In this document: positions 11,624 to 39,239 of the stretch, one piece after another
Layout: each line of letters starts with the position of its first letter
Position numbering within the stretch: position 1 is the stretch's first letter
Origin: Rhynchobatus australiae
Lineage: Eukaryota
Length of the DNA: 64,000 nt
Reading direction: 5' to 3'
Assembly (NCBI GenBank): GCA_034780895.1
Contig: JAUZTB010000127.1
Location: 69,020,101 to 69,084,100 of the forward strand
The notes under the pieces: generated by a model
Told to the model about the DNA's origin: nothing
Seen by the model: the letters and a program-made list of their open reading frames with translations, nothing else
Databases searched by the model: none
Program-made: the position numbers and the translations under genes

Positions 11624-11899
11624 TCAGATGTTGTCTTTGTGTGCTCCAAGAGATAAGCTCTCCCTCAGACATTTGAGCTGCTCTTCACCAAGTTTGATTT
11701 TATCTTCCAGCTCTCGCTGCTCAATGATGAGAGCAGATTTCATCTTTACGAAGTGAGTGTAATCCTGGAGCTCATCTTCCGACAAATGCTTGACCAGAAT
11801 ATCATGGACAACACGTTCCCTGCGATCCACATGTTCCTTCAGCTCTTTGGCCTCTTCAAGCTGTGCTGTGAGTTGCTTTTTCTTTTCATTCAGTGCATG
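11624..11899 (-). CDS. shroom4: Shroom4 terminal coding exon, ASD2 C-terminus
   Basis: Acceptor ttgcag|CAT at 11899, stop TGA at 11626-11624. [24 protein letters not shown]...[37 protein letters not shown] is nearly identical to the recalled human SHROOM4 C-terminus. Confidence 0.96.
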
Positions 11900-12335
11900 C
11901 TGCAAGTTAAAAGGAATTGTGTTAGTCAGTTAAAATGGTCTCATCTTCATTTTATTTCTGCATTTTCCTTTACTGTTTCCCAGGCAGAGCATTATGTTGG
12001 AAAACACATCCACAGAAATTAGCAATCTTGCAACATTATTCCCATCTGATTGTTATTTATGTGTGCACATAGTGAATGCCAGCAGGCTAGGTGGTTGTAG
12101 CAATCATCACAACTGAGGTCCTCTCTGTTCTCACACAATACCTACACAAGTTACTTTTCACCATGTTTACCAGGTAACAAACCAAATGCAAGGACAACGC
12201 TTAAATTCATAGTAAACTCAAGCAGAGTGATTAAGCAAGGATTTTTGTTCCCCCTTATGGAGAAGTGAACTGGTTGTTCCGATGAAGGATCTTTGACCTG
12301 AAACATTGACTGTTTGAGATGTGACTGACTAAATA

Positions 12336-13389: not shown

Positions 13390-13662
13390 CCTTTCTTCCT
13401 CATTTGCGTCAGGATCCAAATTATTTAAGGCATTTTCTACTCTTGCAAGTCGACCCGAGAGAGACAGCAACAGATTCACAACCTTATCCAGATCCCCAAT
13501 AAACATTCGGTACTTATCAAACTCATTTGGTTTGCAGACGTTGTTCACCATTCTTTCCGCTTCTTCGCCCAGGGCACAGTTTGCACTGATGTCTTCCAAA
13601 AGGCTCTTCTGGGCTTCATGCAACACACTGAGTTTTCTACTAAGACTGCAGATCAATTGTTG
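13390..13662 (-). CDS. shroom4: Shroom4 penultimate exon, ASD2 (ROCK-binding) domain
   Basis: Acceptor ttccacag|CAA at 13662, donor AGG|gtatgt at 13390; 273 bp, phase 0-0. [34 protein letters not shown]...[37 protein letters not shown] is the canonical ASD2 core. Confidence 0.96.
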
Positions 13663-14479
13663 CTGTGGAAATCAAGAAGAAAAAGTATGGAGTAGAGAAG
13701 TGTTAGCGTACTCCAAAGCAATTTGAAAATGTGTCACCTCCAAGTGGCATTAGCCATCCCTTAGCAGAAGCAACATGTGCACAGACCTGGAGCAGCATAA
13801 CAGCAGNNNNNNNNNNNNNNNNNNNNNNNNNNNNNNNNNNNNNNNNNNNNNNNNNNNNNNNNNNNNNNNNNNNNNNNNNNNNNNNNNNNNNNNNNNNNNN
13901 NNNNNNNNNNNNNNNNNNNNNNNNNNNNNNNNNNNNNNNNNNNNNNNNNNNNNNNNNNNNNNNNNNNNNNNNNNNNNNNNNNNNNNNNNNNNNNNNNNNN
14001 NNNNNNNNNNNNNNNNNNNNNNNNNNNNNNNNNNNNNNNNNNNNNNNNNNNNNNNNNNNNNNNNNNNNNNNNNNNNNNNNNNNNNNNNNNNNNNNNNNNN
14101 NNNNNNNNNNNNNNNNNNNNNNNNNNNNNNNNNNNNNNNNNNNNNNNNNNNNNNNNNNNNNNNNNNNNNNNNNNNNNNNNNNNNNNNNNNNNNNNNNNNN
14201 NNNNNNNNNNNNNNNNNNNNNNNNNNNNNNNNNNNNNNNNNNNNNNNNNNNNNNNNNNNNNNNNNNNNNNNNNNNNNNNNNNNNNNNNNNNNNNNNNNNN
14301 NNNNNNNNNNNNNNNNNNNNNNNNNNNNNNNNNNNNNNNNNNNNNNNNNNNNNNNNNNNNNNNNNNNNNNNNNNNNNNNNNNNNNNNNNNNNNNNNNNNN
14401 NNNNNNNNNNNNNNNNNNNNNNNNNNNNNNNNNNNNNNNNNNNNNNNNNNNNNNNNNNNNNNNNNNNNNNNNNNNNTGA

Positions 14480-14930
14480 CCAACATATTCATAAACTTCA
14501 AGACCTCTGTCAGAAGTCCTCCAATCTTCCCAGTTTTAAGAAAAAATCCATCTGCGTTCCTGATAGTTGTAATCTCTAATTCCCAGTACCATCCTTGAAA
14601 ACCTTTTTGTGCTGTCCTCAGTGTTTTTTTAGTTTAATTTCCATTTCCACTCTGTAAACTATTCCTAACCAACTTCAACATGAAGCCATTACTTCTGAAT
14701 TCAGTATCTTCAGAAATAAATCCCAGCATGTTTAACTGCTTTGCTGATCTGTAACGCTGCTTTTAATGATTTGTTCACCTGCATCTCCAAATCACTATTT
14801 TTTTGTTCCATTTAATTTCTTATATTCTAAGGTGTGAATGTTGTTTCTGATTTTCCTACAAAAATGTATCAACTTGTTTATCTTTTAAAGCTCATGTATT
14901 ACTCAATTGCCCAGACTGCACACTTTCTAA
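14480..14930 (-). mobile_element. Decayed CR1-type LINE fragment
   Basis: Resembles the reverse complement of CR1 RT/3' sequence ('cccagtaccatccttgaaaaccttttt'). Confidence 0.45.
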
Positions 14931-17145
14931 AGCTCTCTTTTATTGTTTGCATTGTTTCTTTGTGCTGATTTCGGCAGAGGTAATGATAGTGACTTTTGTA
15001 CTACCAACTTGGCTACCAAGGCAATACCATTTTAAAAGTCCTGTCAAATGTGTATTATATTCTAGTGTTTACTTGCCATCCTTAAGTGTCAAATGCATGA
15101 TAATTGCCATATGCTTCTGGGTGCAACTAGATATTTATATTTGACTTTCTAGTCCTGAATAAAGTGGGAAACAGTGATGCTGCTCCTTGAAGGTGCACTT
15201 AGTGAACCCAAGGCAATGTGTATTTAAGAAAACAATAATGGAACATCAGTAATTCTGAAAGGGCTTTTGCACATTCAATATACTTTGGGTTCAAAGTTAC
15301 CTCCTCACTTTCTTGGTCTAAAAAAAATGTGCACCAAGCCAATACATTATCTAATCACTCAATAATTCCCACAGTTAGCTGGATACATGATTATAGGAAC
15401 ACATAAATGGACTATGCTATGGTGAATGGATTTCCTCAACTATGTCTTGAGGCTGCTATACATAGAAACCAACTTTGTTTGAAAATTGGTTTGTAAGCAT
15501 CCAAAAATAAATCAAGTTCCGTTGATTATCTTGAAATAAAAGCAGGTCCAGTCTGACTATACCATTCTTTTTACACATTCATAAAGGACATTTTTGTATA
15601 TCACTGACGATCATCAAATGACAAATTGCAAATGTGGTCTCATCGTAGTTCAAGGAACCCTTATAAAATAGTTGCAAAATTATCTGTGCTTTTGCAGTTG
15701 TGGTTTGCATTTTATCCTAAGAAGATTAGGGAGGAATAACTTAAAATAAGAAACTGAAGCTCTTTCTAATGCATTTTCACATGGCCATTCATATTCCATT
15801 TAGGTAAGATGAGTGCCCTGAAGCTGTATGTGGAGATGGTGAAAAAACAAAATCACACTAATTAGCCCAGAACTCATTCCTCTAGATCTTTTGCCAATGC
15901 ATTTCTAAATGGTATTGACTGAAGCCTAGGAGCAAGATTCTAATTCTATTCATCCACCAATAACTGTGTAGTGTGGGAAAACTTGATTTATTCAATATGT
16001 GATAAAAATAAATGGCATAGGAGAAAGAGGGATGAAGAACTGATCAGCAAGACCCAAGTAGGTTAGAAGGATAGTGACTGAAGGCAATTAGACACAGACA
16101 GAACCCACCATTGCAACAAGTCATTTACTAACATATTTCCTGGAATACTTGATGTTACTTCTATCAATAACTCAACTTTAAATAGTCTTTTCTCTCCACA
16201 GCCCCCGCCGTCCCCCAACAGTCATTCATTGGATCAGATGTTTACATGAAGTGCGCGAAACTTGGGCCGAGTGGAAAGGGAGTCTGGGAACTGGGGAGGG
16301 GGTGGCACCAAAGGTGCGAGAGGGAATGTGGGAGTGAAGGAGGCAGTGCAAACATTACCTGGTGAGCCAGATGCCGAACCATTCGATAGCAGATTAGAGT
16401 TTTGTTGTTGGTTAACTTAAAATACATACATCCTAATCAATGTCTGATGTAGGGGGGTGGGGGGAGGAGAAGAGGGAATAGATGGTCTAAGTGTTTGTGC
16501 ACATCTGCATGTATATTTGCATACGTTCATGTGCACCTGACCTCGACATTAAGTACTTGATAGTCAGCATCAGTGGGCCAAAGGGCCTATTTCCATGATG
16601 TATGACTCAATGACTATAACTCTATGTCCTATCTCAGAGTAACTATAACTATATCATGCATTTAGATGCAAGGAAACATTTTGTAGCAGCAAAAGTACAT
16701 ATTTAGGTTGGATTAGAGGTGTACCATTTGGAATATAACTGCTTAAACAAAATTCACAATGCAAAGCTGCCTGTGTTGTTTGCTACAAGTTCAGCCATAT
16801 GGCCCAGGTGGCAAATCATCCTGGTGTCATCATTCTTTGATTGATTCTATCGAACCTCTGAGGTATGGGTTCCCTGCTGCGAGTCTCATAATGTTGTACT
16901 AATGGCCATTTTTTTTTAATGGTTACTACCATGGGAGAGGAATTGCAGAATAACCCAAGCATGTCTTCACGTACTAACCATAAGCTTGATAGACTTCCCT
17001 TTTACCCAGGATCATAGAAGTAAACTGTTTTGCCAAAAGAGCAACAGAGTAGAATCAGCTAACTCAGCAACCTGGATATCGGCCCAGGAGCTTACCAAGT
17101 TCAAACTAAAGCATATGGAATTGGCAAGATCAGGAAGAGACTTAC

Positions 17146-17664
17146 TTCTCTGAGTTAACATTCAGACTCAGCAGTAGTGGATTTCGTTTCTTGCGCTCAC
17201 GTGCCCGTGACAGCTCCTCTTTGCTTTCTGGAAAGATTCCACCCATCATATCCACAGCACTCTTCATCTTCGAGTTTGGATCCAGAATGTCTGCCAGAGA
17301 TTGGTCTTGCCCTGCAATGTCTCTTACCAATTCCTCTGAAGTCAACTCAGTGGGAGGTCTGCTCTTCACATCTGGACAGCACCTCACAGTCTCAATTCCC
17401 TCACCAGGATCCCAAGAGGGGCTTTTTATAATGTTTCTTTGTAATCTGCTTCCAGGTTTTACGTATATTTCTGAATCTTCCCACTTTTCATCTTGCCTGT
17501 TGATAATACTCAAGTATGATTCCCCACATCGTTGACAGCCCAGATCCACCTCATTTGTTGTAGATGGGATGTTGCCTGGGTGATAGAGTTGCTCTCCTTC
17601 AAAAGGCCAGTCTCTTCCTACTCTGGGTGACCCTGCCCCCACTGAATCCATTAACTTTTGAGTT
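17146..17664 (-). CDS. shroom4: Shroom exon with the pre-ASD2 '[30 protein letters not shown]' motif
   Basis: Acceptor tttttctttcctcag|A at 17664, donor GAGAA|gtaagt at 17146; 519 bp, phase 2-2, inside the 205-aa ORF. The motif resembles Shroom2/3 '[32 protein letters not shown]'. Confidence 0.88.
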
Positions 17665-17694
17665 CTGAGGAAAGAAAAATGAACAGTTAATATC

Positions 17695-21896: not shown

Positions 21897-24014
21897 CTTG
21901 GTATGACATCACTTTCCAGGGGCACTGCCAATTTCACCATTGACCTCTGTGACTTAGAATTATACAATGAAGACATCATATGTTCATCTGAAATAGGAAC
22001 TAAAGAGGAAGGTACTAAGCATCTTGGATTAATAAAATTGGATCCTGGATACCTGTATTCAAAGCCCATCGAGTACTCTGTACACATTTGTGATGGATGA
22101 GAATATCGTGTTGCAGTGTCCACAGCAGAGCCAGCATTTGGAGATAGATCTGAATAAGCCCAAGTTTCCCTCTCAGTGATTGGTTCTGACTTTTTCAAAC
22201 TCACTGATGTGGGCTGTGAGATTAACATAGGATCTACTTCATACTGAGCACCCCTCTGTAACCGATATTTATCCAAATCTGGCAATTCATGCAGAGACAG
22301 CTTTCGGAACTGGTACTTTTCCAAATCTGGCAATTCATGCAGAGACAGTTTCCGAGAATGGTATTTGTGTAAATCTTGCAATTCATGTTGTGACAGCTTT
22401 CGGCTCTGGTATTTCTCTAGACCTGGAAATTCACGTTGGCACCATTTCCAGGACGGAATCTTGCCCATATCTGACAATTCATGTTGGCACAGTTTCCGAG
22501 GTGGATGCTTGTCCATATCTGGCAATTCATAGTGGGACAGATTCCGGGATGGATACCTGTCCACATCTGGCAATTCATGCTGGGACAGTTTCCAGGGTGG
22601 ATACCTTTCCACATCTGGCAATTCACGCTGAGACGGTTTCCGAGGTGGATACCTTTCCACATCTGGCAATTCACGCTGAGACGGTTTCCGAGGTGGATAC
22701 CTGTCCACGCCCGGCAATTCATGCTGGGACAGTTTCCGAGGTGGATACCTGTCCACGTCCGGCAATTCATGCTGGGACAGTTTCCGAGGTGGATACCTTT
22801 CCACGTNNNNNNNNNNNNNNNNNNNNNNNNNNNNNNNNNNNNNNNNNNNNNNNNNNNNNNNNNNNNNNNNNNNNNNNNNNNNNNNNNNNNNNNNNNNNNN
22901 NNNNNNNNNNNNNNNNNNNNNNNNNNNNNNNNNNNNNNNNNNNNNNNNNNNNNNNNNNNNNNNNNNNNNNNNNNNNNNNNNNNNNNNNNNNNNNNNNNNN
23001 NNNNNNNNNNNNNNNNNNNNNNNNNNNNNNNNNNNNNNNNNNNNNNNNNNNNNNNNNNNNNNNNNNNNNNNNNNNNNNNNNNNNNNNNCCACGTCCGGCA
23101 ATTCATGCTGGGACAGTTTCCGAGGTGGATACCTTTCCACGTCCGGCAATTCATGCTGGGACAGTGTCCGAGGTGGATACTTGTCCATGTCTGGCAATTC
23201 ATGCTGGGACAGTTTCCAGGCTGGAAACTTGTCCATATCTGACAATTCATATTGGCCCAGACTCCGAGAACGGTATTTGTTCACATTTGCCAATTCATGC
23301 TGAGGTGATTTCTGGGGCTGTAACTTTTCCAAATCTGGCAACTCATGTTGGGTCACTTTCTTGAACTGGTACTTTTCTAAATCCTCCAATTCATGATGGG
23401 ATAGTTTCCTGGTCTGGTATTTTTCCAAATCTGGTAATTCACATTGGGCTACTTTCTGGGCCTTTTCCAAATTCTCCAATTCGTGTCTAGGTGGTTTCCC
23501 AAATTGGAACTTGTCTGAAACTGGCAATTCATGTTGAGACAAATTCCTAGGCTGATAGGTTTCCAAATTCAATAATTTCTGTTGCAATGGTTGTTTTCCC
23601 AAATCTATTGGTTCATGCTGAGACAGTTTCTGCAATCTGTATTTCTCCCAGTCCGGTGGTGGTGGTCTCTGTGGTGGAGATTTTTTCTTTTTTTTGTTGC
23701 TAGATAAATCATCACATCTACATGCCTCAAAATCACATGGGGTATGTTTCTCTCTTTCAGACTTTCTCAATACATCTGGTGATTCGCTACTAATGTGGTG
23801 GGTGGTACAGCTGCAGACAACTTCTCTCTGGGGAGAGTCTGGGGAATACTCAGGATAATTCAAAGGCAATGCAGTAGATGGGCTGGGTGTCTCCCAAGAA
23901 ATTTCTTGTCTCGGTTTCCTTGGCAGCCTATTCCACTCATTATTGAGATTCTCTTTTGACTTTGATTCAGAAGGTGCTTCTTGAACATTGCTCAGAGTTT
24001 GTATCTTCGTTTCT
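21897..24014 (-). CDS. shroom4: Shroom4 exon (equivalent to human exon 6) containing a 16-aa tandem repeat array
   Basis: Lies in the 711-aa ORF; acceptor tctttcag|A at 24014, donor CCAAG|gtaatt at 21897; 2118 bp including 282 N, phase 2-2. Contains KKKSPPQRPPPPDWEKYRL (human: KKAFPPPRPPPPNWEKYRL). Confidence 0.88.
22238..23659 (-). repeat. Coding minisatellite, 48-bp unit, about 30 copies (consensus LPD[VL]E[RK]YPPRKLSQHE)
   Basis: Unit on + strand ccggcaattcatgctgggacagtttccgaggtggatacctgtccacgt. About 24 units are visible. 'ccacgt' at 22801 and 23089 is 288 bp apart (6 units) across the N block. Confidence 0.95.
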
Positions 24015-24671
24015 CTGAAAGACATCAAATATTGTTATTTGATCANNNNNNNNNNNNNNNNNNNNNNNNNNNNNNNNNNNNNNNNNNNNNNNNNNNNNNN
24101 NNNNNNNNNNNNNNNNNNNNNNNNNNNNNNNNNNNNNNNNNNNNNNNNNNNNNNNNNNNNNNNNNNNNNNNNNNNNNNNNNNNNNNNNNNNNNNNNNNNN
24201 NNNNNNNNNNNNNNNNNNNNNNNNNNNNNNNNNNNNNNNNNNNNNNNNNNNNNNNNNNNNNNNNNNNNNNNNNNNNNNNNNNNNNNNNNNNNNNNNNNNN
24301 NNNNNNNNNNNNNNNNNNNNNNNNNNNNNNNNNNNNNNNNNNNNNNNNNNNNNNNNNNNNAGCACTTGTACTTGTTTGTGCATTTTATTCCTTTTATCTA
24401 TTACAATAAGCTGATATTCACCCAACTGCCAATTTGGTTGGGAAAGGTTTAAAGTAAATTGACACACAGGGAGAAATACAGATTGCAGAAACTGTCTCAG
24501 CATGAAGTAAATAGGGGCATGGGCACAACCCTATTAGCAACAGACAAGACAAAGAATGTAACTAAGGGGTGGCTATAGGATAGTAACTGAGAAAGTACTG
24601 GCACTGTAGCATGGGAGTAGAGAAGGAACTAAGTGGTATTCTAGTAGTGAGAACAAAGGAAGTGCTTGCCA

Positions 24672-25005
24672 TTGGCACAGCAGTCAGTGCTGCTGCCATA
24701 CAGTTCCACTGACTAGGTCAATCCTGATCTTGTTTGCTGTCTGTGTGAATTTTGTACGATCTCTCTGTGACTGCATGGGCCTCTTCCAGGTGCTCCAGCT
24801 TCCTCTCGCATCTCAAAATCCCGTGCTATTTGGTAGATTAATTGACTGCTTTAACTTTCCCCTGGTGTAAATGAATGGCAGGTGAATCAATGGGCATGAG
24901 AGTGAGAAAATAGATTACAGGAAATAATTTAGGGAATGGGACTGATGGGAATTCTCAGTTGGCAGAGACTCGATGGGCCAAATGGCCTCCTTCTATGTTG
25001 TAAGA
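24672..25005 (+). mobile_element. V-SINE/HE1-like SINE, near full length
   Basis: tRNA-like head, V-domain 'ctctctgtgactgcatgggcctcttccaggtgctccagcttcctc', LINE-derived tail 'gactcgatgggccaaatggcctccttct'. Confidence 0.75.
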
Positions 25006-25397
25006 AATACGACTACAAAAAAAAAGATGGTTTTAGAATGCACTTTTCAAACTACAAAGTGTGCTAAATACTTATGTGGGCTTGTGATACTGTTGTAATA
25101 AATGAAACATGACATTCCCTGGATGGGGAGATACTTTGCCACCTGTTTTGTCAGTTAGCTAATTGCTTATTATCCTCACCTCTGGATCTCTGATCACACT
25201 TGAAAACTGGGAGGGTAACACGATTCAAAGAATCAATTTGATTATTAATCTATGACTGCCTTCAGGAAGGGAACATTCAGCAATAGTTCTGAAAATTCAA
25301 CATCACAAACACGGTGAGTGTAATTTGTCAAATTAAACTGTGTGATAAATAGGGAAGAATGAAGGCACTCCATGGAATTAAATCACTAAGCTCTTAC

Positions 25398-25462
25398 CTT
25401 TCTGGTGAAGAAAACTTCCTGTTTATTATCTCAGTCTGATCCAGTTTTTCCACCGGATATCC
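25398..25462 (-). CDS. shroom4: Shroom4 small exon (equivalent to human exon 5)
   Basis: Too short for the ORF track. ttctttgcag|GGA...GAAAG|gtaaga; 65 bp, phase 0-2, exactly bridging the two large exons. Encodes GYPVEKLDQTEIINRKFSSPE(R), similar in size and motif to human 'EFPGDKWNPITGNRKTSQSGR'. Confidence 0.8.
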
Positions 25463-26299
25463 CTGCAAAGAAGAGTGTCAGTCAGTACAAAGAAACATCC
25501 GCCATTCTATTTACAGCATAGTTGGGAAACACATCAGCAGTGTTTTAGATTTTCTCGTTAGCTAGACTGTAGACACTTCCCTTAATTAGCAACCAAAGTA
25601 AATAATTGACAATGGCTGGGCTGGGTTTGTGGAACTTGGAAAAAGAACCATTGCAGTACAGAACTGGACTGTATTACAAACATACTCCAATCATTTAATA
25701 ACTAGTGCCTGTGAAAAAGTACCTCAGTTCCAGCATTTCCAATCTCTAGTCATTGGTCTTCTTTGCTGTTTATTTTATCCTGACATCCAGATGCATGTGA
25801 ACAACTGTTTATCTGAAAATGTACATTAAAAAATGTAATGTCTGTGATAACCTTTTCCTTCTCAATATTTTCCTTCTTAAAGCTGCTGGCTGATATTGCA
25901 GTGCAAGTTCATGAACACTGACACTCTTGGCCACTTTATTAGATGATCTGGACACAAGGTGTTCCTGGATTGGAAGATCTTTCATCAAGGGAAAAAGAAC
26001 AGCTTTTCAGACACTTGAAGATACAGGCCCAACAAAAATGTGAGAGCAAAAAAAGGTGGTAGAAAACAGCAGGCCCAGCAACTCACTGACAACCATGATA
26101 TGTATGGTCTCTCCAGAGCTGTAAAAGCCATGCACGGTCCAAACAAGCAAGATCTCAGCCCACTGAGAGCCAAGAATTGCAGTGGGGGGTGGGGGGGTTG
26201 GTGTTGAGGCATTAACTCTTCTGTAACAGTGACTCTGTGCTTGAAGTGAGCACTTGAGACTCCATCCCCAGTAGCCCATTCGTAACCATCAGGTCAAGC

Positions 26300-27460
26300 A
26301 GGCCACATTTCAATTCAGAAATAACAAGCCCTTGGAGCAGACAGTAAAACTGCTGCAACCTTAAACCTCAGTGGTGAAGAGCTTCAGTCACAAATCCACA
26401 ATCACATTCTTCACACCAGGGAAGAGGAAGATATTAAGATATATTGTGGGACCTTCAAGATGCCGTAATCATGGCCATCTTGCCAGAAAGAGTCAAATCC
26501 ATCTGGTAATTACAAAAAGGGTCTCCCTGCTGTTTGGTACACAGGTCAGTCCTCCTGAACCACTTCCTTTCAATGGCCAAAGAGCTAGTCCTCAAATCAC
26601 AGTGTGGGTTCTGTCCATCTGGAGGTAGAGTAGACGAGATTTTCACTATGCAACAACTAAGGTTGGCCACATCATTTCACGTCCAACACCAGACTCCCCA
26701 GAGAGACATCCAATTCCAAGTCCTGTTATGGGAAGTGAAATTCATTAATGTTCCAGCACAGCTTTTGGTCGACCAAGGAAAAGGGTACGTGAAGATCAAA
26801 ACCTCAGACTTGGCACAAAACCCAAGTACTACTGGGCAGCCACAATCACTGTCTCACACCTGTTTCACATATGTTTCACACCTAGACCACTTACAGCAGG
26901 CATCTCAAGGCACTAGAAAAATAGCACCAAAATCCACCAAATTCACTGAAAAGAGATGGAAACCAATATCAGTGACCTATTCCATGCCAAAGTCCTCAGT
27001 ATCAAGGTCCGAGTTACTCTTGGTCAGCAGCACTAGGCTCGTCACATCGTTCCATGTCCATCGCCACACTCCCCAGACAGACATTCCATTCCAAGCCCCA
27101 AGGATGATACCAGGTGGACAGAGAAAAGGATTCAAGAATGTGTTCAAAGCTTCTTTGAAGACATTGAACATTCCTGAAAACCTCTGATCCATGACCAAAG
27201 TATAATAATGGAGGATAGTATTTAGCCCCTCAGGGCATGCATCAGGAGTACACAGAAGCCTGCAAAAGTGACAGAAGAAGCATACCACCTCAAACTGCCC
27301 ACTTGCCTGCCCCCCTCAGCCACTTCCTTCTTCATCTGTGCACAAGTCTGCAGTTCCCACGTTGGCCTGATTAGCCACCCCAAACCCCTTAAGATCAAAG
27401 TGGAAGCAAGTCATTCACAAACTGAGGGGCTGCCAACGAAGGTGGAAAAGGATCCGGACA
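26300..27460 (+). mobile_element. Degenerate RTE-clade LINE
   Basis: Peptides ELVLKSQCGFCPSGGRVDEIFTMQQL (RTE RT 'PESQCGFR..GTVDMIF'), PGGQRKGFKNVFKASLK and C..VCSSHVGLISH (C-terminal zinc motif); internally deleted. Confidence 0.75.
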
Positions 27461-28013
27461 TGTCAGCAGGCTATCCAGTCAAGAGGCAATAGGAGCTTCA
27501 TAGAGTGGTGTCCACCTTCAAGTAAGGTGCAAACACTCCACTTGTTAAGCAGATACCATTGCTTTGCAATCAGGAATGGAACCTACTGTATAGCTTCTCC
27601 TAACTGAAAATGGGCTTCCTTTCGTGAATGGCAAGATGAAATGTCAACTCATGAAACACATGGGAACCTGAAAATACAAAATTGTTGTGAGGATAGGCAC
27701 AACCCAATGTTACTCCAGTGCCAAGTATGCTTCCCTGATATGGGAATGCTTAGCTCCCACAAAGATGCTGAATGAGACCTGCAGAATCATCAGCTGTTGC
27801 CTTAAGCTAATCAAATGGTAACAGCTTGTAAATCTTCACTGGAGCTGTGGCCAGCCAAGGAGAAAGGAAGTGGCAAACAAAAGTCACCAAACACCTGATA
27901 CATGTCACAACACCACAGAAATGTGCCCAATATCACAGAGCAGCTTTGTAATTATAACAAAGTTAGGTTTTACTCCCATCACAGTGACCCATGTGGTATG
28001 TGGTAGGCACAAG

Positions 28014-28160
28014 GAGGATCACAGATGCTGGAAATCTGGAGCAACACACAAAATGCTGGAAGAACTCAGTGGGTCAGGCAACATTCATGGAGGGAAATAG
28101 ACAGTTGACGTTTTGGGCCGAGATCTTTCTTCAGTCCTGTCCATTTCCCTCCATGGATGA
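28014..28160. mobile_element. Penelope-like terminal fragment (short dispersed repeat)
   Basis: 'cagatgctggaaatctggagcaacacacaaaatgctggaagaactcagtgggtcaggcaacat...gacgttttgggccgagatctttcttcag'. Related copies at about 2180, 20040-20170, 31150-31290, 39500-39570, 55780-56010 and 57290-57390. Confidence 0.5.
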
Positions 28161-28239
28161 GGAATGTGGCAGGTACAGCTTGGGGACCTTGGCAGTGGTG
28201 TCAAGGAAATGAGGGCAACTGAGCTGTTCCAAGCCAGAG

Positions 28240-29172
28240 TAGAGGGGAAATAGTTCACCTGGAAGGACATAAACTGTCTCTATACCCACAAAGGCAATCA
28301 AAAGTTAACATGAACAGATTAGGAATATGAGTGGTACACTGGTCTTTATTACAAGAGGATTTGAGTACAGGAATAAATAAGTCTCACTGCTATTACAGGT
28401 CCTCCCAGGTTACAAATGCCTGACTTGTGTACACCCTTTACATACAAAATAGGCATTTGAGAGACTGGTGGTATGGATTTGCCAGCTGCTCTGGGGCTGC
28501 AGGCATCTTCTGACGCCTGGAAACTCAGTTCGCTGCCACATTTCCAACTTGCAAACTGCCCGAGTTACAAACAGTTCACAGGAATGGAACCATATGGTAC
28601 CCTGGGGAGGACCTGTATACAGAGCCACGGTGAGACCTCACCTGGAGAATTGTGTACAGTTTTGTTCTCTTTACCTAAGAAAGGATGTACATCACAGAGG
28701 GAGTGCAGGGTTGCAGGAATGGCTGGTTTGTCATACAAGGATAAATTGAGTAGACTAGGCTTGTTACCTTTTCAGCTTAGAAGAACGAGAGGAGATCTCT
28801 TTGAAATTTGCAGTATCTTATGGTACTTGACAGGCTATATGCAGGGAAGATGTCTGACCAGGCTGGAGAGATCAAGAATTGGGGTTCACAATCTTAGAAT
28901 AAAGATTAGTAGGGTATTTAGGACTGAGAATGAGGAGAAACTTCTTCAGGTAGAGACTGCTGAATTTTTGAAATTCTCAACCCTAATGGGTTCTGGAGGC
29001 TGAGTTGTGTTTTCATTCAAAACAAGATGAATAGATTTCTGGGCAGAATTGGATGTGGGGAGAATCACAGGAAAATGGGGATTGTACACGAAAGTGGTGT
29101 TGACAAGAAGATCAGCCATGGTGTAGCAGACTAGGAGATACCAAACAGCCAACTGCTGCTCCTGTTCTTATG
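28240..29172 (+). mobile_element. CR1 LINE ORF2 3' end, interrupted by a MITE
   Basis: YRATVRPHLENCVQFCSLYLRKDV and GLSYKDKLSRLGLLPFQLRRTRGDL are typical CR1 ORF2 C-terminal peptides; tail 'ctgctcctgttcttatg'. Confidence 0.85.
28396..28615. mobile_element. Tigger-like MITE nested in CR1
   Basis: TA duplication at 28394-95 and 28616-17. TIRs CAGGTCCTCCCAGGTTAC and GTACCCTGGGGAGGACCTG. Removal restores the CR1 frame CTG CTA TTA TAC AGA GCC (LLLYRA). Confidence 0.88.
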
Positions 29173-32100
29173 AAGAAGTGTGGCTAGATGTAATACCCAA
29201 GACCTGAGAATGCTGTGAAAGGCAGATCATGCAATAGCTTTAGTTTCACAACATCCACACACGGTTTGGCATCTTGCCAGGGCCAACTTGAGAGCCTTGC
29301 AATGTACCCATCAATGAAAAGATATATTACTTTCATGAATGGACACAAGAAGTTTAAGATTCTTGAACCCAAGAATCAACTCTGGTAGATCCTGAGTACG
29401 TATGACTNNNNNNNNNNNNGCAGCACCACAAACTTAGCCATAAAAGTACAAGACTCAAGGAATGTCGACCTCCAGGCTTTGAAGGCATCAATGGAACATT
29501 AATTTGGAGAACTCGGTACACATTTTTGTTAATATTGCCGAGCTGTGGAAAGAAAGTTCTAAGGAGAGGATAACGATAAAGCAACAAAAGTAAAACTACA
29601 CTTCTTGGATGTCAAGACTTTAAATACAAGTCTGGCATTGGGATGCTGATATGAAGTACAACAGATATGTAAAAGACTTGAGAAATTGCTTTTCCATATG
29701 ATGGAAGCCTCTATAAATCACAAAAACAAACAACAGAGTGAATAAAAGCAGACTACTACCAGTCGTTGGGGGTCATGGGTACAAGATTTAAAGTATAATC
29801 TTGTAAAATCCACAGTTGTCAAGATGTCAAATTTACTTCCAGGGTTAGTACATCCACAATCAAGATTAGTTTGTATAAATGGATGACGAAAAAAGATTAG
29901 AGGATTGTGGGAACAGGGTGGGTACACTTGATTATTTGCTCTTGTGAGGAGTAATAGTTGATCTGCATTGGTTAGGCCAATGTCTGTGTTTTAATTTCTA
30001 TACATTTAACCCTTGCAGAGAAGCCCAAGTGTAGAAGGTTGTGTGTTGCTTCTCTTTTGACAACTAATGACACATCATGTAGGCAAATCAAAGTGGAGAG
30101 AAAGGTGTCTGCACTGTAACCTTTCAAAAGAACATTAAAAATTGACATTTTCAACTTCACATCTATAATTAATAAAAAAACAGAGCACCAAATCTCTAAT
30201 GGCCCACTTAAAAAAAAACACATTATGCTGAGCAAGTCTCAGTTTTTGTCCAGTCTTCACTAAGTTGGCTAGCAAAAAGGTATTCCAAATGATCCTAAGA
30301 TCCCAGAATAAAAGGAGAGGGCAANNNNNNNNNNGAGCTTCTCATTTTTCATGCTAGAGGTACAAGTTCAAATCTAATTTCTCACTCAGTTAATATCTAG
30401 TATGTTTGAGTTTCCCAGGGAGAAATCAGCTTTGTTCGACCCCGTGGAACAATGTAGATATAGAGCCAACATGATGATGTAAATCTGCATCTCAGCAAAA
30501 AAGTCAACACCAAAGGAAAAACAATGAAGGAAAAGCAAAAATGTAACACTTCACCATTATATAGTTTAGTTTAGATGGTATAGTGCAAATGAATTACACC
30601 ATAAAACCATTACATACACCAGAGATACCTCACAGCAACTTGAATGCAATAATTTTCTTCAATACTTGCAACATGTTCAACTGGGTTAGTGCCGTGAACC
30701 CTATTGTCTGTTATAATCCTTGCAATTCTTTGCAAGACTTCAGTATCACATCATGACTTGGTCATAGCTTCCTTTGTGTATTTTACTTTCTTTGGTCCCA
30801 CAAGTAACATTCCATTGCTAGGAGCTACTTACTGGAAAAGGAAATGATTCAAATTCAGGCACAGAACTGAACAGAGTGTTCACAGAATCATATCCTGATG
30901 ATCCAAAGGGATATTTATAAAGGATGTGCAAATACACTCAACCATTTTGATTCGGCATCTATGATTTTCTAAGGGCAACCCAATAAACAGTTCATTTTCA
31001 GGGATGGTGTGGGATGCAACCAATGAAGATCAGAGAGATGTGGAGCAAGGCTAGCTGAGTTGTCTAGTCTGAGATATTTCTCTCTGCAGTCTTGCTATAT
31101 AAAGACATTTATTTGAGCCAAACTAGTTTTGAAAGGTAAAAACAGTAAAGCTAGAAGCACTCAGCAAATCAGGCAACATCTGAGGAACATAAAACACAGC
31201 CAACATTTATGGTTAAAGACTCTTGATCAGATGCTGTCTGACAAAAGATTATTGACCTGACTGTTAATTTTGTTTTTCTGTCCTGAGATACTACCCAAGT
31301 TCTTTTGAAATAATTGCATTTAGTTGGAACCAATAAATGGTAAATGGCTAATCAACATTTAAAATAAAGTGGATGTGAGAAGGGGAACACCAAAAAGTGA
31401 CCGAGTTGGTGAAAGAAAATCTCAATGAAATTAATGCATTTCATCAAGACAAAATATAACTGATGGTAGTAGTATAAAAGGTGCAAATTCAAAAAAAATC
31501 TGTTCAGAATGTGATTTAAAGTACTCATTCCACAACAGCCTACAAGGAACCAGTGTGATATCTCATCAATGTTAATGCCCATCTTGGTAGAAGAAATGAG
31601 CACACAATATTATGAGAGCAGAGGGGAAAAAATAATCAATAATTCAAAAATAATTCCTTCTCCTGACTACTAATCCAGTGAAAAGTAAACATGTGAATAC
31701 TGGAGAATGACAAAATCAAATTTTTATCACAATGGGCTTTAATAGTAAAATAGAAAAAATATATTCACTGTTTTGACTGGTAGAAGTTTGAAATAGTTAT
31801 GGAACATGGGACTGTACCTACAGAATGAATCAATGTTTTGAGAGGCAGAAAGGAGAAAATTAAAAGTTTGAAATGCCATTAAGGATCTTTTTAAAGGATA
31901 TGTAAATACATTTCAGCATTGTGATATCTGAATTGTAATGGTGAGATTTTAATTTACTTACATTCTACCCCTGTGCCTGATTAATATTATTCTATCTATT
32001 GGGAAAAGAAAATCTAATTAGAATAATTCGGTTTTAACAGTGGACATTTACCAGAAGTAGTTATAAAATTTCTTTGAAAACACTGGAAAATGTAGCCAGA

Positions 32101-32611
32101 TATACCCCTCCCATGCATTTGTTTTTTTTTGAAAGACTCCATTAATATTACCAAACTAGTATCACATTTGAAACAAAGTCACTCAACAACACAAGTGTGA
32201 TATCTTGTGCGTGATACGTGGTTAGCTTTAACATGTTCCAAGTTCCATCTATATCGTTTACATCAGAATTGCACCTTTTAATCTGAGCTCACAAGAAGTA
32301 CAGCAGTTCAAAATAGAATTACATCAACCAGACAGCAGAAAAGGTTCCTAGTTATGCAAATACATTTTTATCATTTCTCATGTTCACAACCTTGCAGCAA
32401 ACTCTGATTTCAATAAGAAAGGGGCAAGGTTGAACATCAGAATGCTTCTCATAAGAAATAAAAAAATGGATTAAGTTGTTTCTTCAGCATGCTTCATGGC
32501 ATTTTTGTCATTGTTAATAAAACCAATAATAGATGGTTGATTCACTGGAAGAATAAACTTCCAAAAAAAGTTGAGACCTATTTAAATGGGTGGTTAATAT
32601 AAATGCCCTAC

Positions 32612-35048
32612 CTTAGTTAAAGTGGGTGGCATTTGCTTGAATCTTGTGGTAGATCGAGGTTCTTCGAGGTGACTGTTATCTGAATGAAAATACTGATAAT
32701 GTATCGATGGATCTCCAGCAGGGTGTTGTATTTGCTGAATGTGAGACACATGCTCTTTCAAAGTGCTTGATGTATTTGGTTTGAGTGGCTCTAAATTTTC
32801 ACATTTCTGTTCACATTGTTTCTCTCCTTGATTGCTGTATTTTTGTTGTTCCGTACCTCTAGATGAGCAAGCAGGATATTTCTCAGAGCATTGACCAACT
32901 CTGCCAGTAGAGTGCTGGAAGTTTTCCTCAGGACATTGCCTCAGATCATCACCTGGAAGTACGTGCAACTTACTGCAAAAACGCTGACCTTTAGACTTTC
33001 CAATTGAATTTGATTTACTCTGAAGTCCTCCAAAATTACAAGAATCAGACCCAGAGAAGCTTTTACTAGTCTCTTCAAAGAATTTTCTCCTCTCTGCAAA
33101 AGGCACCAATGGGGAGGTATCTGGCTCCTGTAACAATGGCACTGTACATGGTTTTATCTCACCTGACCCACTTTCCTTTATCAGCTTATTTTGAGACTCC
33201 AGTTTATTTTCAGATGTCCACCTTCTTGGGTCACTTCCCCACGATTCCTGTGCAGTCTTTTGCTCAAAACTTCTGGGTAATGAATCTATCTCTGTTTTGC
33301 ATTTGTCTGGTGAAATATTGGAGTTGCTGGCCAATGAACAGAAATACATACTTCCAGTTTTATGATCTTCTGCTGTGTTATCCAGGCTTTTATTGGAACT
33401 TGTGGTCTGTGTCTTTGTGCTAGTAGTTTCTTGTGCTATGTCATTAGCTTCAGACTCATCAGTTATGCAAGTATAGAAAGTGGACGGTTTCTCTTTTGAA
33501 TCATTCATTTCTTCTGAAGTTTCTTCCATCTGCAGCAATGCAGCACCACTTTTGTTCTTCTGGAGCTGAGCTTTCTTCATTTGTATCTCATTACGCAAAT
33601 TTGTGGCAAAGCGGTCACTTTTGCGCCGCATTCTGGCTACTCTGGAATTTGATACACGGGCATTTCGGACAAATTCATTCTTGGTTTCTTCCAAATCTGT
33701 CTCTATTTCCATAATATGACTACTTGAGGATGTGCTTCCAATTTCACTCATTTTATCCAATGGTATTGGAGGTACCTGCTGATGGGCTATCATTTCAGCA
33801 GATGCACCTCTGCAACTTGTTCGACTTAGTTGACTCTTGCAAGATGAAGCAAGATCTTGACTACCTAAACAGTGATTGCAGGAAGAACCATCAATTTCTT
33901 GTTGCTTTCCCTTCAGTATGCATTCAGAACTCAAAGGATTCTCTTTTTTCTGTTTTTCAAATGCAGAATCAATTTTGTTTAAAGTTTTATAAGGAAGCCC
34001 AACACTGGACTGATATCCATCCTGAGGTGTTGATGTACTATTGTGCCATTCACCTCTTTCCTGATCACACTGCATTCCCAATCCATTTTTATTACCGTCT
34101 GAAATCATTAGTGAATGCAGTTGCACTGACAACAACTTCTCAGGTGCACTGTGTCTATGCAAATTCAAAGTTAGTCTTTCATTTTGACCAATTTGATTTA
34201 TGCTCTGGTATTGACTGGCAACAAATGATGGATCAATTAAGTTGCATAAATCCAACTGTCCCATCAAATAACGATTGGATTTTCCAGGAAATGTTGTATT
34301 TTCATGTGAAATAATTTCTTCACTGTGCCTGTGAGAATGACAGTAATGCTTTGGCTGTTGCCTTAACAAACAGCAACACTCAATTGGACAATGACTAGAT
34401 ATGGATTTACCAGAGTGCTGGGAAGAGCCAGTAGAGCAATTAGGAACACAATAAGATTCTCCCTCAGAATCTCTATTTCTCGCCGATAACAAGGTTTCAG
34501 AAGTCCACCTTCCACGGTGAAGCAGCAAGTTTTTTGCTGCAACTGCCTCAGAATTTGTCACACACACAGATGCAGAGCGAGCTTTAGTTGCCACAAAACT
34601 TTCCCTGCGAACAGGTGGCGGTGGAGGGGCTGAGTTGGTAGAGCCTGAAGCGTTTTCTTCATGCACATGGGATTGTGGCATGTTGTCGCTTTCAGATGAC
34701 CCCTTCCCACAATGTGAACAAAGTTGTTCTTCAGCCAGTGGTTCCCCACCTTCACTTCCACTTTGCTGGTATTGGATATCTCCATACCTTGTTGGTAACC
34801 ATGGTCCCAAACTATGCAATATACTGTCCATGGAAGCAGACTCATCTGTCTTCATTGATGATGAAACAGTATAGTCAGAGGTGTTAGAGCTTGCAGAAAA
34901 TGAGCTGTAGGCAGAATCTCTTTTGTTAGGATATGTGCTTTGGTCACAACTTTGGTTGGGTTGGTCAAGGCTGTCCATACTTCCAAATGAGCTCCTTTGA
35001 TCCAAGCTATGATGGAAAGCTAGTTGATCCCACTGCATAGGAAAGTCA
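32612..35048 (-). CDS. shroom4: Shroom4 large central exon (equivalent to human exon 4)
   Basis: Lies in the 831-aa ORF; acceptor cttacag|T at 35048, donor AAG|GTAGGG at 32612; 2437 bp, phase 2-0. Contains SHROOM4 motifs YPNKRDSAYSSFSASSNTSD, PPPPVRRES, HRHSAPEKLL, RRKSDRFATNLRNEIQMKKAQLQK and LVPFAERRKFFEETSKS. Confidence 0.95.
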
Positions 35049-35329
35049 CTGTAAGATACAAGAGAACGTAGGTGATTCCTTAAAAACAAAATACCACAAT
35101 ATCATATTTTGCTCTTTAACTTGTTTTGACAAATAACTTATACGTGCCATTTTCATGTTTGTATCACCATTTTCTGCTCCATGGTTGCAAGATACTAAGT
35201 TCACCTCTTTTGCATTCCTCCTCCTTTAATGTATTGAACCAATTTCTTCCTGCGGCTAAACCATTACACACGAATGTTCATGGGACATTTTAAGTACCTA
35301 CCTCACTGAGTGCGCCAAACGTTAATCAA

Positions 35330-37170
35330 GGATAGTCAGCATGGATTTTTTTTTAAAAAGAGAAGGGTGATATAGAGCATAGTATAAATCAGGAAAATTA
35401 GAGGCATATGTAACAAAGATAATACAATAATCATGGAACACAAATTTACATATAGACTTGGCAAACCAAATTAACAGTAAATCGCGGAGTGTAAATCTGG
35501 ATGGTTTTCCAGATCATTATTTTGAGGAACCAGCNNNNNNNNNNNNNNNNNNNNNNNNNNNNNNNNNNNNNNNNNNNNNNNNNATTCATGTAGCTAATGG
35601 GGCCTTAGAGAAGAGTGATAATAATATGAAAGGATTCTATATTAAAATTGAAAGTCATTTAGATAAATTTGAATAAAAACAAACAATGACGATAAGAAAT
35701 GCAAGTACATTTGGTAATTTCGTAAACAATATTAAGAGGTATGACAGTAGACAAACAATCATTAATACTTAAAAGAACACACAAGTTGCAGCAAATATAT
35801 TCATTAAGACACAAATGGAAAAAATTGAAAATTTTCCCTGCGCGCAGATGGTGGGGGAGGGGCTGTGTTGGTATAATCTAGAGTACTTCCTTCCCAGACA
35901 TGGCAAGGTAACATTTCATCTCTTTCAGATGACCCATTCCCAAGCTAACAAATGGAACAGGGTATAGTAGATGAACATATGAATTAGGAGCAGGAGCTGG
36001 CACTTAGTCCTTTGAGCTACTCTGCCATTCCGTAAGATCATGGCTGATCTGATTGCAATGTCAGAGTACAGTTCTGGAATAATTAATGAGCCTGAAAGCT
36101 GATAAATCCCCTGGATCTGATCACCTTCATTCCAAGGCTGTGAAAGAGGTGGCTTTGCAGATAGTGGATACTCTAGTTGTCATCTTATAAAATCCCATTG
36201 TTTCTTGAACAGTTCCTACAGATAAAGGTTAGTTAATAAAGGGGGATCGAATAACATGGAATTACAGACCAATTAACCTGACCAGTAGTAGGGAAAATGT
36301 TAAAGTCTATCATAAAAGTATAAACAGGACACTTAGAAAATAATAATAGGATTGAGCTGAGTCACAATGGATTTATGAAAGGGAGATCACATTTGATAAA
36401 TGTTATAGTTCTTTTGAAGGTGCAACTTACAAAGCAAATATTGGGGAAAATCAGATAGACGTGGCATATTTGGACTTTCAAAAGACCTTTGATTATGTGC
36501 CACATAAGGATTTACTTAATAAAATTAGAGCACAAGGGATTGGGAGTGATACATTAACATGGATTGTGGAATTGCTTAATATAAAGAAAACAAATTGTAA
36601 TAAACAGCAAGTCAATTTTAGGCCAATAGGAACCCTGGCTGTTCACAATCTAAATCAATAATTTGGATGAAGGGACCAAGTATAATATATCCAAAGTTGC
36701 TGCTAATACATAGCTAGGTGGCAGTGAGTTGTTGAGTAGGCTTCAGGGGTATGTATATAGGTTAAGTGCATGGGTAAGAATGTGGCAGGGGACACAATGT
36801 GGAAATGTGAAATCATCCATTCGGTAAAAAAAATAAAAACACAGAGCATTTTTTAAAAACAAAATCGATAGAGAGATTGAACAGTGTAGGTGTTCAAAGG
36901 GACTTGTGTACAAGATCAATGGTGGCTCACTTCATTTACTGAGGAATGGTTGGATAAGAGAAAAGCTACATCAGAAGTGAAAACTGCAAAAGGAAGGTAG
37001 ATAAAAAGGTACTGGGAGAAGAGAGGAGAATAATCTCTCCAGGAATATAAAAGGTAGCTTGGAATAAATCCAATGAAGAAAAAATTTTTTTATCCAGAGT
37101 GGTGAGAAGTGGTGCATAATTTAGATGCCTTTAAGGGAAAGCCAGCTAGGTACATAAATGAGAAAATAAN
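35330..37170 (+). mobile_element. Degenerate CR1 LINE ORF2 (endonuclease and RT fragments)
   Basis: 'aaatcccctggatctgat' (KSPGSD), 'aattacagaccaattaacctg' (NYRPI), AYLDFQKTFDYVPHKDLLNKIRAQGIG (RT motif). Confidence 0.82.
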
Positions 37171-38271: not shown

Positions 38272-38403
38272 CTGGAGTCATATCCCGAATGCCACGACAG
38301 ACTGAGAGACCCTGATGAATAGGGCATCATAGTGGCCTCAGGTTGTGCCTCTGATAACTTGGCCAGGTGCCATGTGTAAGGTCTTATGCCAGGACCACTT
38401 CTC
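38272..38403 (-). CDS. shroom4: Shroom4 coding exon (equivalent to human exon 3, just after the PDZ domain)
   Basis: Acceptor tttcttttag|G at 38403, donor AG|GTGAGT at 38272; 132 bp, phase 2-2. Encodes RSGPGIRPYTWHLAKLSEAQPEATMMPYSSGSLSLSWHSGYDS, close to recalled human SHROOM4 'RPHSWHVAKLLEGCPEAATTMHFPSEAFSLSWHSGCNT'. Confidence 0.9.
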
Positions 38404-39239
38404 CTAAAAGAAATAAAAGCCACCAATGTAAGCTGTAGATAATGGAACACTCAATTCAATAAAACACTCAAAACACTCAAAGCTCTGTAGACCTTATCTG
38501 CCTACAAAACAATGATTACACTTCAAAAGTACTTAAATTAGCAGAGAAGCATTTTGAAACATTCTGAAAACAAGAAAGACGCTAATGCAAATACATTTCA
38601 TTTACGGAACAAGACCCAACCAAGAATAGCATGTGCTGGATAACAAAACATGCAACAAATATTTTGATAGGATCTACACATCTTAAAGTTACACTCATTA
38701 TGTTTTAAGGCCATTTTCTTAACTAATGCATTGGTCTGCTGCAATTTCTACACCTTCCCCAAAATTCCTCAACTGAAAATTCTCACTGGTACAGCTCCAC
38801 GTGCTCTGGCAGCACTTTGATATATCAGCTGGATGTATTTTTCACGTGCAAATGTCTTGGGTGAATGTTGGTGGGCTTTTCGAGAATAGAAAGCAACACC
38901 CCTCAACTTTTCATCAATAGCTTCTAGACAGCGGTCAGTAAAGAGAATCTAACTGATTTTGCCTCTCCCTCACCAATGGCTACTGAAGTTAATTGTCACA
39001 TACAACATAGCCAATTAGGACTTTCACTAAGATCATGCAACTTTATGATTCTCATAACTCAGTCCCATATCTGACACCACATTTATTCAGCGAGTCACGA
39101 ATACAGCTTGTTTTCTCAGTGGTTTATATATACAGTCCTTCAGTTCAGAATCTCCTTGTCAAACAAAGAAAATTTGTTACAGTAAGCATGTCAGTGCCAA
39201 CTAAACAGGACATATAGTTTGACAAATTACTATTTCATA

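Follow-up and report, generated by a model that had tools for sequence, protein, structure and literature searches.

An in-frame tandem array of 16-residue units in Shroom4 of sharks and rays, very probably grown from a conserved single-copy motif

Variable numbers of tandem phosphosites within a disordered region are known from the KSP repeats of the neurofilament heavy chain and the heptads of the RNA polymerase II CTD, where phosphorylation has been shown and changes the net charge; their sites are mostly proline-directed and lie in terminal tails. Xin repeats (XIRP1/XIRP2) are 16-residue units present in about 15-31 copies, three of which bind and six of which cross-link actin (PMC2478706). 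The SFM is a short helical motif in a disordered Shroom region, and human SHROOM4 scored in an SFM screen at position 770, among the matches listed in supplement file 3 (PMC13364712). Shroom proteins form a Shroom-Rock module, with an LPPPP-EVH1 connection described in the fly (PMC7875558). SCRIB and ROCK bind ASD2, and SCRIB, a scaffold of the SCRIB-SHROOM2/4-ROCK pathway, carries compact, partly repeated SADH and WRAAR motifs (PMC10626209). According to a paper of 2022, only two functional domains were known in SHROOM4 (PMC10262053).

The array described here lies in Shroom4 of sharks and rays, and its closest counterpart is a single motif in Shroom4 of bony vertebrates, which occupies the same place in the same gene, shares the residues of the array's head and unit 1, and carries RRAS where the array has RKLS; however, the motif is one copy with its Trp kept, whereas the elasmobranch array has about 10-33 copies with Leu, Val or Met in the inner units. 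It resembles Xin repeats in unit length, in a high and lineage-dependent copy number and in belonging to an actin-associated vertebrate protein, but actin binding is demonstrated for Xin repeats, and the window array gave neither a match to the Xin consensus GDV(K/Q/R/S)XX(R/K/T)WLFET(Q/R/K/T)PLD nor a Xin Pfam match at E up to 10. Like the SFM it contains a short helical motif in a disordered Shroom region, but without SFM spacing: a relaxed SFM pattern (hydrophobic P1 and P4, aromatic P8, acidic P9) matched nowhere in the window array or in 22 further arrays, and three times in the central exon of the gene. Unlike KSP repeats and CTD heptads, the array has a predicted basophilic site, sits in an internal, alternatively spliced exon and has a traceable single-copy ancestor. 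SADH, as described, differs in having three copies, in the partner protein SCRIB, and in binding spectrin (PMC10626209). With a repeated kinase consensus in a predicted disordered tract, the array would fall among tandem phosphosite arrays.

The gene in the window (the whole stretch analysed, 64,000 nucleotides from Rhynchobatus australiae) appears to be batoid Shroom4, with orthology judged by best named matches and the shared motif. Shroom4 is the gene that the earlier note had named; it lies on the minus strand, which that note had left unstated. The closest named matches of both exon-seeded and PDZ-seeded searches were Shroom4 or Shroom4-like; Pfam ASD2 was recovered on the frame 17768-17145 (E 8.3e-09), and the later ASD2 exons are 97-99% identical to a Pristis model. 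The exons (PDZ, central, small, array and ASD2) were mapped by tblastn with two batoid models as follows:

38274..38465, minus strand: exon with the second PDZ part (tblastn)
32611..35050, minus strand: large central exon, holding FAERRKFFE (33074-33100), which fits the relaxed SFM actin-filament motif pattern
25398..25461, minus strand: small upstream exon, spliced to the array exon (tblastn and spliced contigs)
21897..24014, minus strand: array-bearing exon of 2118 nt, phase 2-2, AG acceptor and GT donor (acceptor joint in RNA-like runs, donor by protein models alone)
17145..17666, minus strand: next exon, start of ASD2 (Pfam and tblastn)
13390..13665, minus strand: ASD2 exon (tblastn)
11627..11902, minus strand: last coding exon, end of ASD2 (tblastn)

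Over the central exon, identity to the Pristis pectinata model is 94%, which points to a batoid near the sawfishes. A full PDZ is present in orthologous models; in the window its second part was found, and residues 1-77 had no match there. Likewise, residues 1182-1239 of the Pristis model had no tblastn match in window positions 13666-17144, and their exon may lie in the N run 13807-14476. Several side observations concern the same region. A diverged second match (59%) to central-exon residues 247-288 lies upstream at 35828-35959 on the minus strand, as a partial intronic duplicate, and introns at 27900-28900 and 24900-25010 hold very high-copy interspersed repeats (summed contig depth to about 76,000 in run X5). 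Two shark models (P0009, P0020) skip the equivalent of the ASD2-start exon (17666-17145); the ELVRDI pattern of this exon had no match among the 66 bony-vertebrate proteins examined, a few of which have similar stretches.

The array lies in an open reading frame of 713 aa without a stop (24034-21896, minus strand), in which PPQRPP is followed by the repeat at 23659-22238. Its parts are:

22238..23659, minus strand: array of 30 tandem 16-aa (48-nt) units, two of them shortened, to 12 and 14 aa
23660..23695, minus strand: single, unamplified basic and proline-rich head of the parent motif, KKKKKSPPQRPP, homologous to KKKGPPPPRPPPP in 84/105 bony-vertebrate Shroom4 proteins (best 120 of 841 matches)
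23612..23659, minus strand: unit 1, with ancestral WEKYR retained and a predicted helix (helix 21-31, block pLDDT 81)
22238..22429, minus strand: last four units, 83-88% identical across four batoids (flanking non-repeat sequence 58-79%)
22807..23088: N run hiding five units and parts of two, its length preserving the 48-nt phase exactly

Twelve complete units precede the N run and eleven follow it (23 fully visible, two partial, five within the run). The last unit to start ahead of the run and the first full unit beyond it begin 336 nt apart, exactly 7.0 periods of 48 nt, so that the total is 30, although N makes up 282 of the 1422 array bases (20%). TRF reported a period of 48 with scores of 519, 238 and 159 (threshold 50). 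In the two visible halves the coding frame has 0 stops, whereas the two alternative minus-strand frames have 6/12 and 1/13. The earlier note's description of about 30 in-frame units without a visible stop was thus borne out, as were its sequences for unit 1 (PPDWEKYRLQKLSQHE) and the final unit (LPDLDKYRLQRGAQYE) and its remark that the two shortened units lose whole codons; both of these units keep the frame. The visible array carries 65 K/R against 63 D/E, and ten [RK][RK]x[ST] sites; arrays of other species have 6-18 each. Long open frames also cover the array on the plus strand (22231-23364 and others), and these were regarded as repeat shadows. RKLS[QL]HE in the units resembles SRKLSVL in ASD2, a likeness too short to be weighed further.

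Most of unit 1 (23612-23649) recurs, inverted and exact over 38 bp, in the upstream intron at 24469-24506 on the plus strand, and the two arms could pair in the pre-mRNA across the acceptor at 24014. In the DNA run X5, a 923-nt contig matches 24469-24995 over 527 nt, and its other 396 nt equal the distance 23650-24045; this contig may join the two inverted arms, through either an assembly artefact or an inversion.

The array very probably arose from a single-copy Shroom4 motif by tandem duplication, a view that rests on sequence comparison. The parent motif, KKKGPPPxRPPPP[NK]WE[KQ]Y+xRRAS[HQ], is present once in 84 of the 105 bony-vertebrate Shroom4 proteins (best 120 of 841 matches), these 84 show neither another unit-like copy nor a periodicity of 16 residues, and none of the 105 has the array. 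Among the 21 proteins without the motif (best 120 of 841), the 15 inspected look like shorter isoforms or partial models. The parent Trp is present in 83/84 copies. Each unit aligns to the part of the motif after the prolines, P-[DN]-W-E-K-Y-R-x-[RQ]-[RK]-x-S-[HQ], so that amplification was confined to the post-proline half, with the basophilic kinase site in it (RRAS to RKLS), and the Trp became Leu, Val or Met in the inner units. Derivation by tandem duplication of a conserved linear motif, as the earlier note had suggested, therefore stands, but not its picture of whole copies of 'PPPDWEKYRL', since the proline part remained single, the inner units lost the Trp, and the parent motif is longer, ending in RRAS[HQ].

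Human SHROOM4, which the earlier note took as the model of the ancestor, does have one copy, but in a derived placental form without the serine. In placental-type copies (16/84) LF[RQ]A[ATV]Q stands in place of the RRAS site, right where polyQ/polyE starts, whereas non-placental copies keep [RK][RK]x[ST] in 53/68 and Ser/Thr in 61/68; the array is located where placental mammals have these low-complexity runs, much as had been noted for mammals. Marsupials and platypus show other decayed forms of the RRAS site. The human-type LFRAAQ ending being derived, the likeness of the final unit to that ending does not reflect true homology. Of the proposal that the first and last units correspond to the two halves of the motif, the WEKYR of unit 1 holds; the trace in the last unit is instead RRG[ST] or RKGT, which ends it in 9/12 shark species, and together with the WEKY of unit 1 this suggests an internal duplication between helix and kinase site. 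A second conserved motif, R-S-x-S-L(P), lies at most 90 aa after the parent motif in 63/68 non-placental bony vertebrates (best 120 of 841) and resembles a 14-3-3 site; batoids have RSRSLG inside unit 8, and the three sharks with an R-S-x-S-L(P) match have it near the N-terminus only.

Comparison of sequences places the array in both sharks and rays, and it is not special to Rhynchobatus australiae. The exon-seeded search returned 23 proteins, all elasmobranch, ASD2-bearing and named Shroom4, Shroom4-like or uncharacterized; 22 of these models, from 19 species (seven batoids and 12 sharks, including Heptranchias and Pristiophorus), carry the array, and the Pristis model P0023 does not. In all 22 it is open and in frame, in both lineages, so that the stops or frameshifts in relatives that the earlier note had considered were not seen in these models. 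A PDZ-region-seeded search, which is independent of the array, gave 15 elasmobranch proteins (14 with the array, and P0023) and 105 bony-vertebrate proteins among the best 120 of 841 matches, and a motif-region search seeded on shark matched elasmobranchs only. No chimaera Shroom4 was recognised in the exon-, shark-motif- and PDZ-seeded searches (the last within the best 120 of 841) or in a profile search, whose matches were mostly unnamed. The comparison of unit counts that the earlier note had called for gave about 10-33 in elasmobranchs, with Rhincodon shortest at 161 aa (about 10 units) and Hemitrygon longest at 522 aa (about 33), and a single parent motif in bony vertebrates (best 120 of 841); the counts depend on assembly, since two models of Chiloscyllium punctatum disagree (8 and 19 units). 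Being common to sharks and rays, the array dates at least from their common ancestor, about 250-300 million years ago.

The outer units are recognisable by position across species, and the inner units are homogenised within lineages, with the consensus L[PA]DLEKYQSRKLSQHE in sharks and LPD[VMI][ED]RYPPRKLSQHE in batoids. Pristiophorus (P0011) has a five-unit (80 aa) higher-order repeat within the array, and most of its units have QKLS, with RKLS in only 5/29. Unit columns were taken from 206 shark and 125 batoid units delimited at 16 aa, with merged and shortened units excluded. Positions D3, K/R6, Y7, K11, L12, S13, H15 and E16 persist in both groups (K11 83-86%, S13 70-85%, D3 90-99%, E16 83-98%), and positions 4, 6, 8 and 9 changed between the two lineages; column conservation of this kind can result from homogenisation rather than selection. 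The mean pairwise dN/dS over 20 full window units is 0.29 (units being non-independent), and these units show 25 of 32 possible distinct single synonymous changes and 50 of 104 non-synonymous ones. Ten disjoint closest unit pairs contain 36.5 synonymous and 62.5 non-synonymous changes, giving a ratio of 0.49, 0.61 or 0.75 at a transition bias of 1, 2 or 4 (p 0.001, 0.019 and 0.12), so that significance is lost at a bias of 4. All these estimates of selection come from pairwise comparison. In organism A, a relative, units 1-4 differ from those of the window by two synonymous and seven non-synonymous codon changes and a 3-nt deletion, and the sequence before the array by eight synonymous and four non-synonymous changes. 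Across four batoids, identity is 58-75% before the array, 83-88% in the last four units and 67-79% after it. The Arg codon at -3 has decayed to CAG (Gln) or TGG (Trp) in 6/20 full window units, and this Arg has decayed in 35% of shark units. Selection on the array is thus moderate and uneven.

Four of eight listed sequencing runs were compared over positions 23460-33000: X1-X3, RNA-like runs from one study of organism A whose RNA status is a guess (X2 is marked as probably DNA, yet contains spliced joints), and X5, which is DNA. The GT-AG joint 25398 to 24014 was found in all three RNA-like runs and the joint 32611 to 25461 in two, and X5 has neither; RNA-like contigs continue from the array exon through units 1-4 to the end of the compared stretch. 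The 5' part of the array exon is therefore included in spliced RNA-like contigs of a relative, and the inclusion in mRNA that the earlier note had asked about holds within this scope, the 5' joint and units 1-4. Because both ends of the exon are in phase 2, it can be skipped or shortened in frame, and the following sites bear on this:

22047..22055, minus strand: alternative in-frame donor AG/GTATCC, last exonic base 22053, matching the shorter exon end of models P0006, P0008 and P0011
22557..23133, minus strand: seven visible in-frame donor-like AG/GTATCC sites in inner units, phase 2, with the same sequence as the 22053 donor
23133, 22797, 22749, 22701, 22653, 22605 and 22557, minus strand: last exonic bases of these donor-like sites, putative in the window species
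23904..23912, minus strand: point 23910, AG/GCAAG (a GC-type donor) in organism A and AG/ACAAG in the window, the same point as the array-skipping junction of P0023

The Mobula hypostoma X6 model (P0010) exits the array at an AG/GTATCC-type point. The shared phase of the donor-like sites reflects one event copied many times and is not evidence of selection. At 23910, contigs of X1 and X2 fork, two covering 23912 (depths 11.7 and 13) and one covering 23909 (7.7 and 6.7), and the Pristis model P0023 joins its next exon at the equivalent point; from the contig fork, organism A likely has an array-skipping isoform made through its GC donor, which the window, with AG/ACAAG, lacks. As to the splicing-out that the earlier note had set against its proposal, array-containing forms thus occur along with skipped or shortened ones, which are modelled (P0023, P0010) and likely in organism A.

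The array is predicted to have no stable fold. An AlphaFold2 model of its 3' half with 18 sequences reached pLDDT 50 and pTM 0.13, a model of the head with the first units, built from one sequence, reached pLDDT 62 and pTM 0.21 with a helix over unit 1, and neither gave a confident, regularly packed fold such as a solenoid repeat. Pfam returned nothing above cut-off on the array, and the ESM Atlas no usable match for the array or the parent motif; five chains from a PDB profile search (E 0.07-4) were taken as chance. A profile of the motif and three units, run against 1.84 billion representatives, gave 37 matches: one elasmobranch Shroom4, 29 single Shroom4-type motifs and seven others (P0129, P0131, P0134, P0139, P0145, P0152, P0157), rejected on inspection as unrelated repetitive proteins (P0131 from its 12-residue proline-region match, the other six by sequence). 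No paper on the array or the parent motif was found with the motif strings, Shroom4 plus elasmobranch, or shark tandem repeats as search terms, a scope that takes in few subscription papers. The earlier note's remark that it knew of no description of the repeat is therefore upheld for Pfam, PDB, the profile search and the literature searched.

As for function, PKA and related AGC kinases have RRxS as their consensus, and the array may be a disordered multi-site phosphorylation strip with RKLS as putative kinase sites, a reading that we prefer tentatively and hold at somewhat under an even chance. In this reading the second half of the conserved motif, expanded in frame and spliced in, is common to sharks and rays; in their common ancestor a single internal duplication would have fallen between the WEKY helix and the RRxS site, and unequal exchange or slippage would later have enlarged the array. 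Phosphorylation of RKLS by PKA or a related AGC kinase could then shift the charge-balanced array from zero to strongly negative charge and tune Shroom4 between its predicted actin-binding region and the ROCK-binding ASD2, and alternative donors may tune the length of the array. This reading is preferred because the ancestral site is conserved (53/68 and 61/68 non-placental copies, best 120 of 841), K11, S13, D3 and E16 are kept in both lineages, dN/dS is 0.29, the last four units are conserved above their flanks, the joint is spliced, no fold is predicted and the charge is balanced. Decay of the -3 Arg, the closest-pair ratio of 0.49-0.75, the changes in units 1-4, an approximately threefold variation in unit number, the serine loss in placentals (16/84) and the array-skipping forms (P0023, and likely organism A) speak against it. 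Several of these observations would fit a near-neutral spacer, in the form of a coding minisatellite within a disordered linker that tolerates change, in which selection acts only on frame, composition and the ancestral motif (head, unit 1 and terminal units) and the inner units turn over by slippage and gene conversion; we regard this as possible, at roughly one chance in three. Such a spacer would agree with unit counts of about 10-33, neutral-looking change in units 2-4 between close relatives, the weak selection signal in the closest pairs, the lost Trp and often lost -3 Arg, placental polyQ/polyE at the same place and the modelled skipping forms. However, it fits less well with an array that is open and in frame in 22/22 array-bearing models of both lineages, shortened units that lose whole codons, a dN/dS of 0.29 in the deep comparisons, last four units more conserved than their flanks, and the survival of the same columns through independent homogenisation in sharks and batoids.

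By analogy with Xin repeats, the D-hydrophobic-E-K-Y helix of each unit might weakly bind a partner, with 10-30 copies giving avidity; F-actin, spectrin or a domain reading the proline head plus helix would be candidates. The core D3, hydrophobic-4, K/R6 and Y7 is among the best-kept parts of the unit, a helix is predicted for unit 1 as well as for other units of the shark type, and three Xin repeats suffice for binding and six for cross-linking of actin (PMC2478706). Such docking nevertheless seems unlikely, as the near-invariant Trp (83/84, best 120 of 841) is replaced in the inner units, those of batoids have Pro-Pro directly after Tyr and are predicted without a helix, and no SFM-like or Xin pattern was found in 23 arrays, whereas an SFM-like stretch is present in the central exon at about the position of the human SHROOM4 score (770, PMC13364712). 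An assembly or annotation artefact, or an untranslated insertion, is very improbable: 20% of the array is N and the Chiloscyllium punctatum models differ (8 and 19 units), but the array is in frame in independent assemblies of 19 species and spliced contigs enter it. To return to the phosphorylation of the RKLS sites, the Lys-to-Arg codon change in batoids would put an in-frame 5' splice site in each inner unit, and one gene could then make an isoform ladder differing in the number of kinase sites. It is a long shot, and rather improbable, that a so far undescribed Shroom4 regulatory site, kept throughout jawed vertebrates, became in sharks and rays a phospho-rheostat of many sites, with splicing controlling its length and the batoid ladder setting how strong Shroom4-ROCK contractility is.

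The array is a genuine feature, old within sharks and rays, and has no description in the literature and databases searched. Should it be a neutral spacer, its interest would be mostly descriptive. It belongs with tandem linear-motif arrays in disordered scaffolds, and the same gene still displays the single copy from which the repeat derives. The array further draws attention to a motif that is strongly conserved in SHROOM4, a gene of human neurodevelopmental disease (PMC10262053). Three natural states of this site exist, namely one site in most bony vertebrates, a site lost beside polyQ/polyE in placentals, and many sites in sharks and rays, and the amplified natural version makes the kinase and the partner of the motif easier to find.
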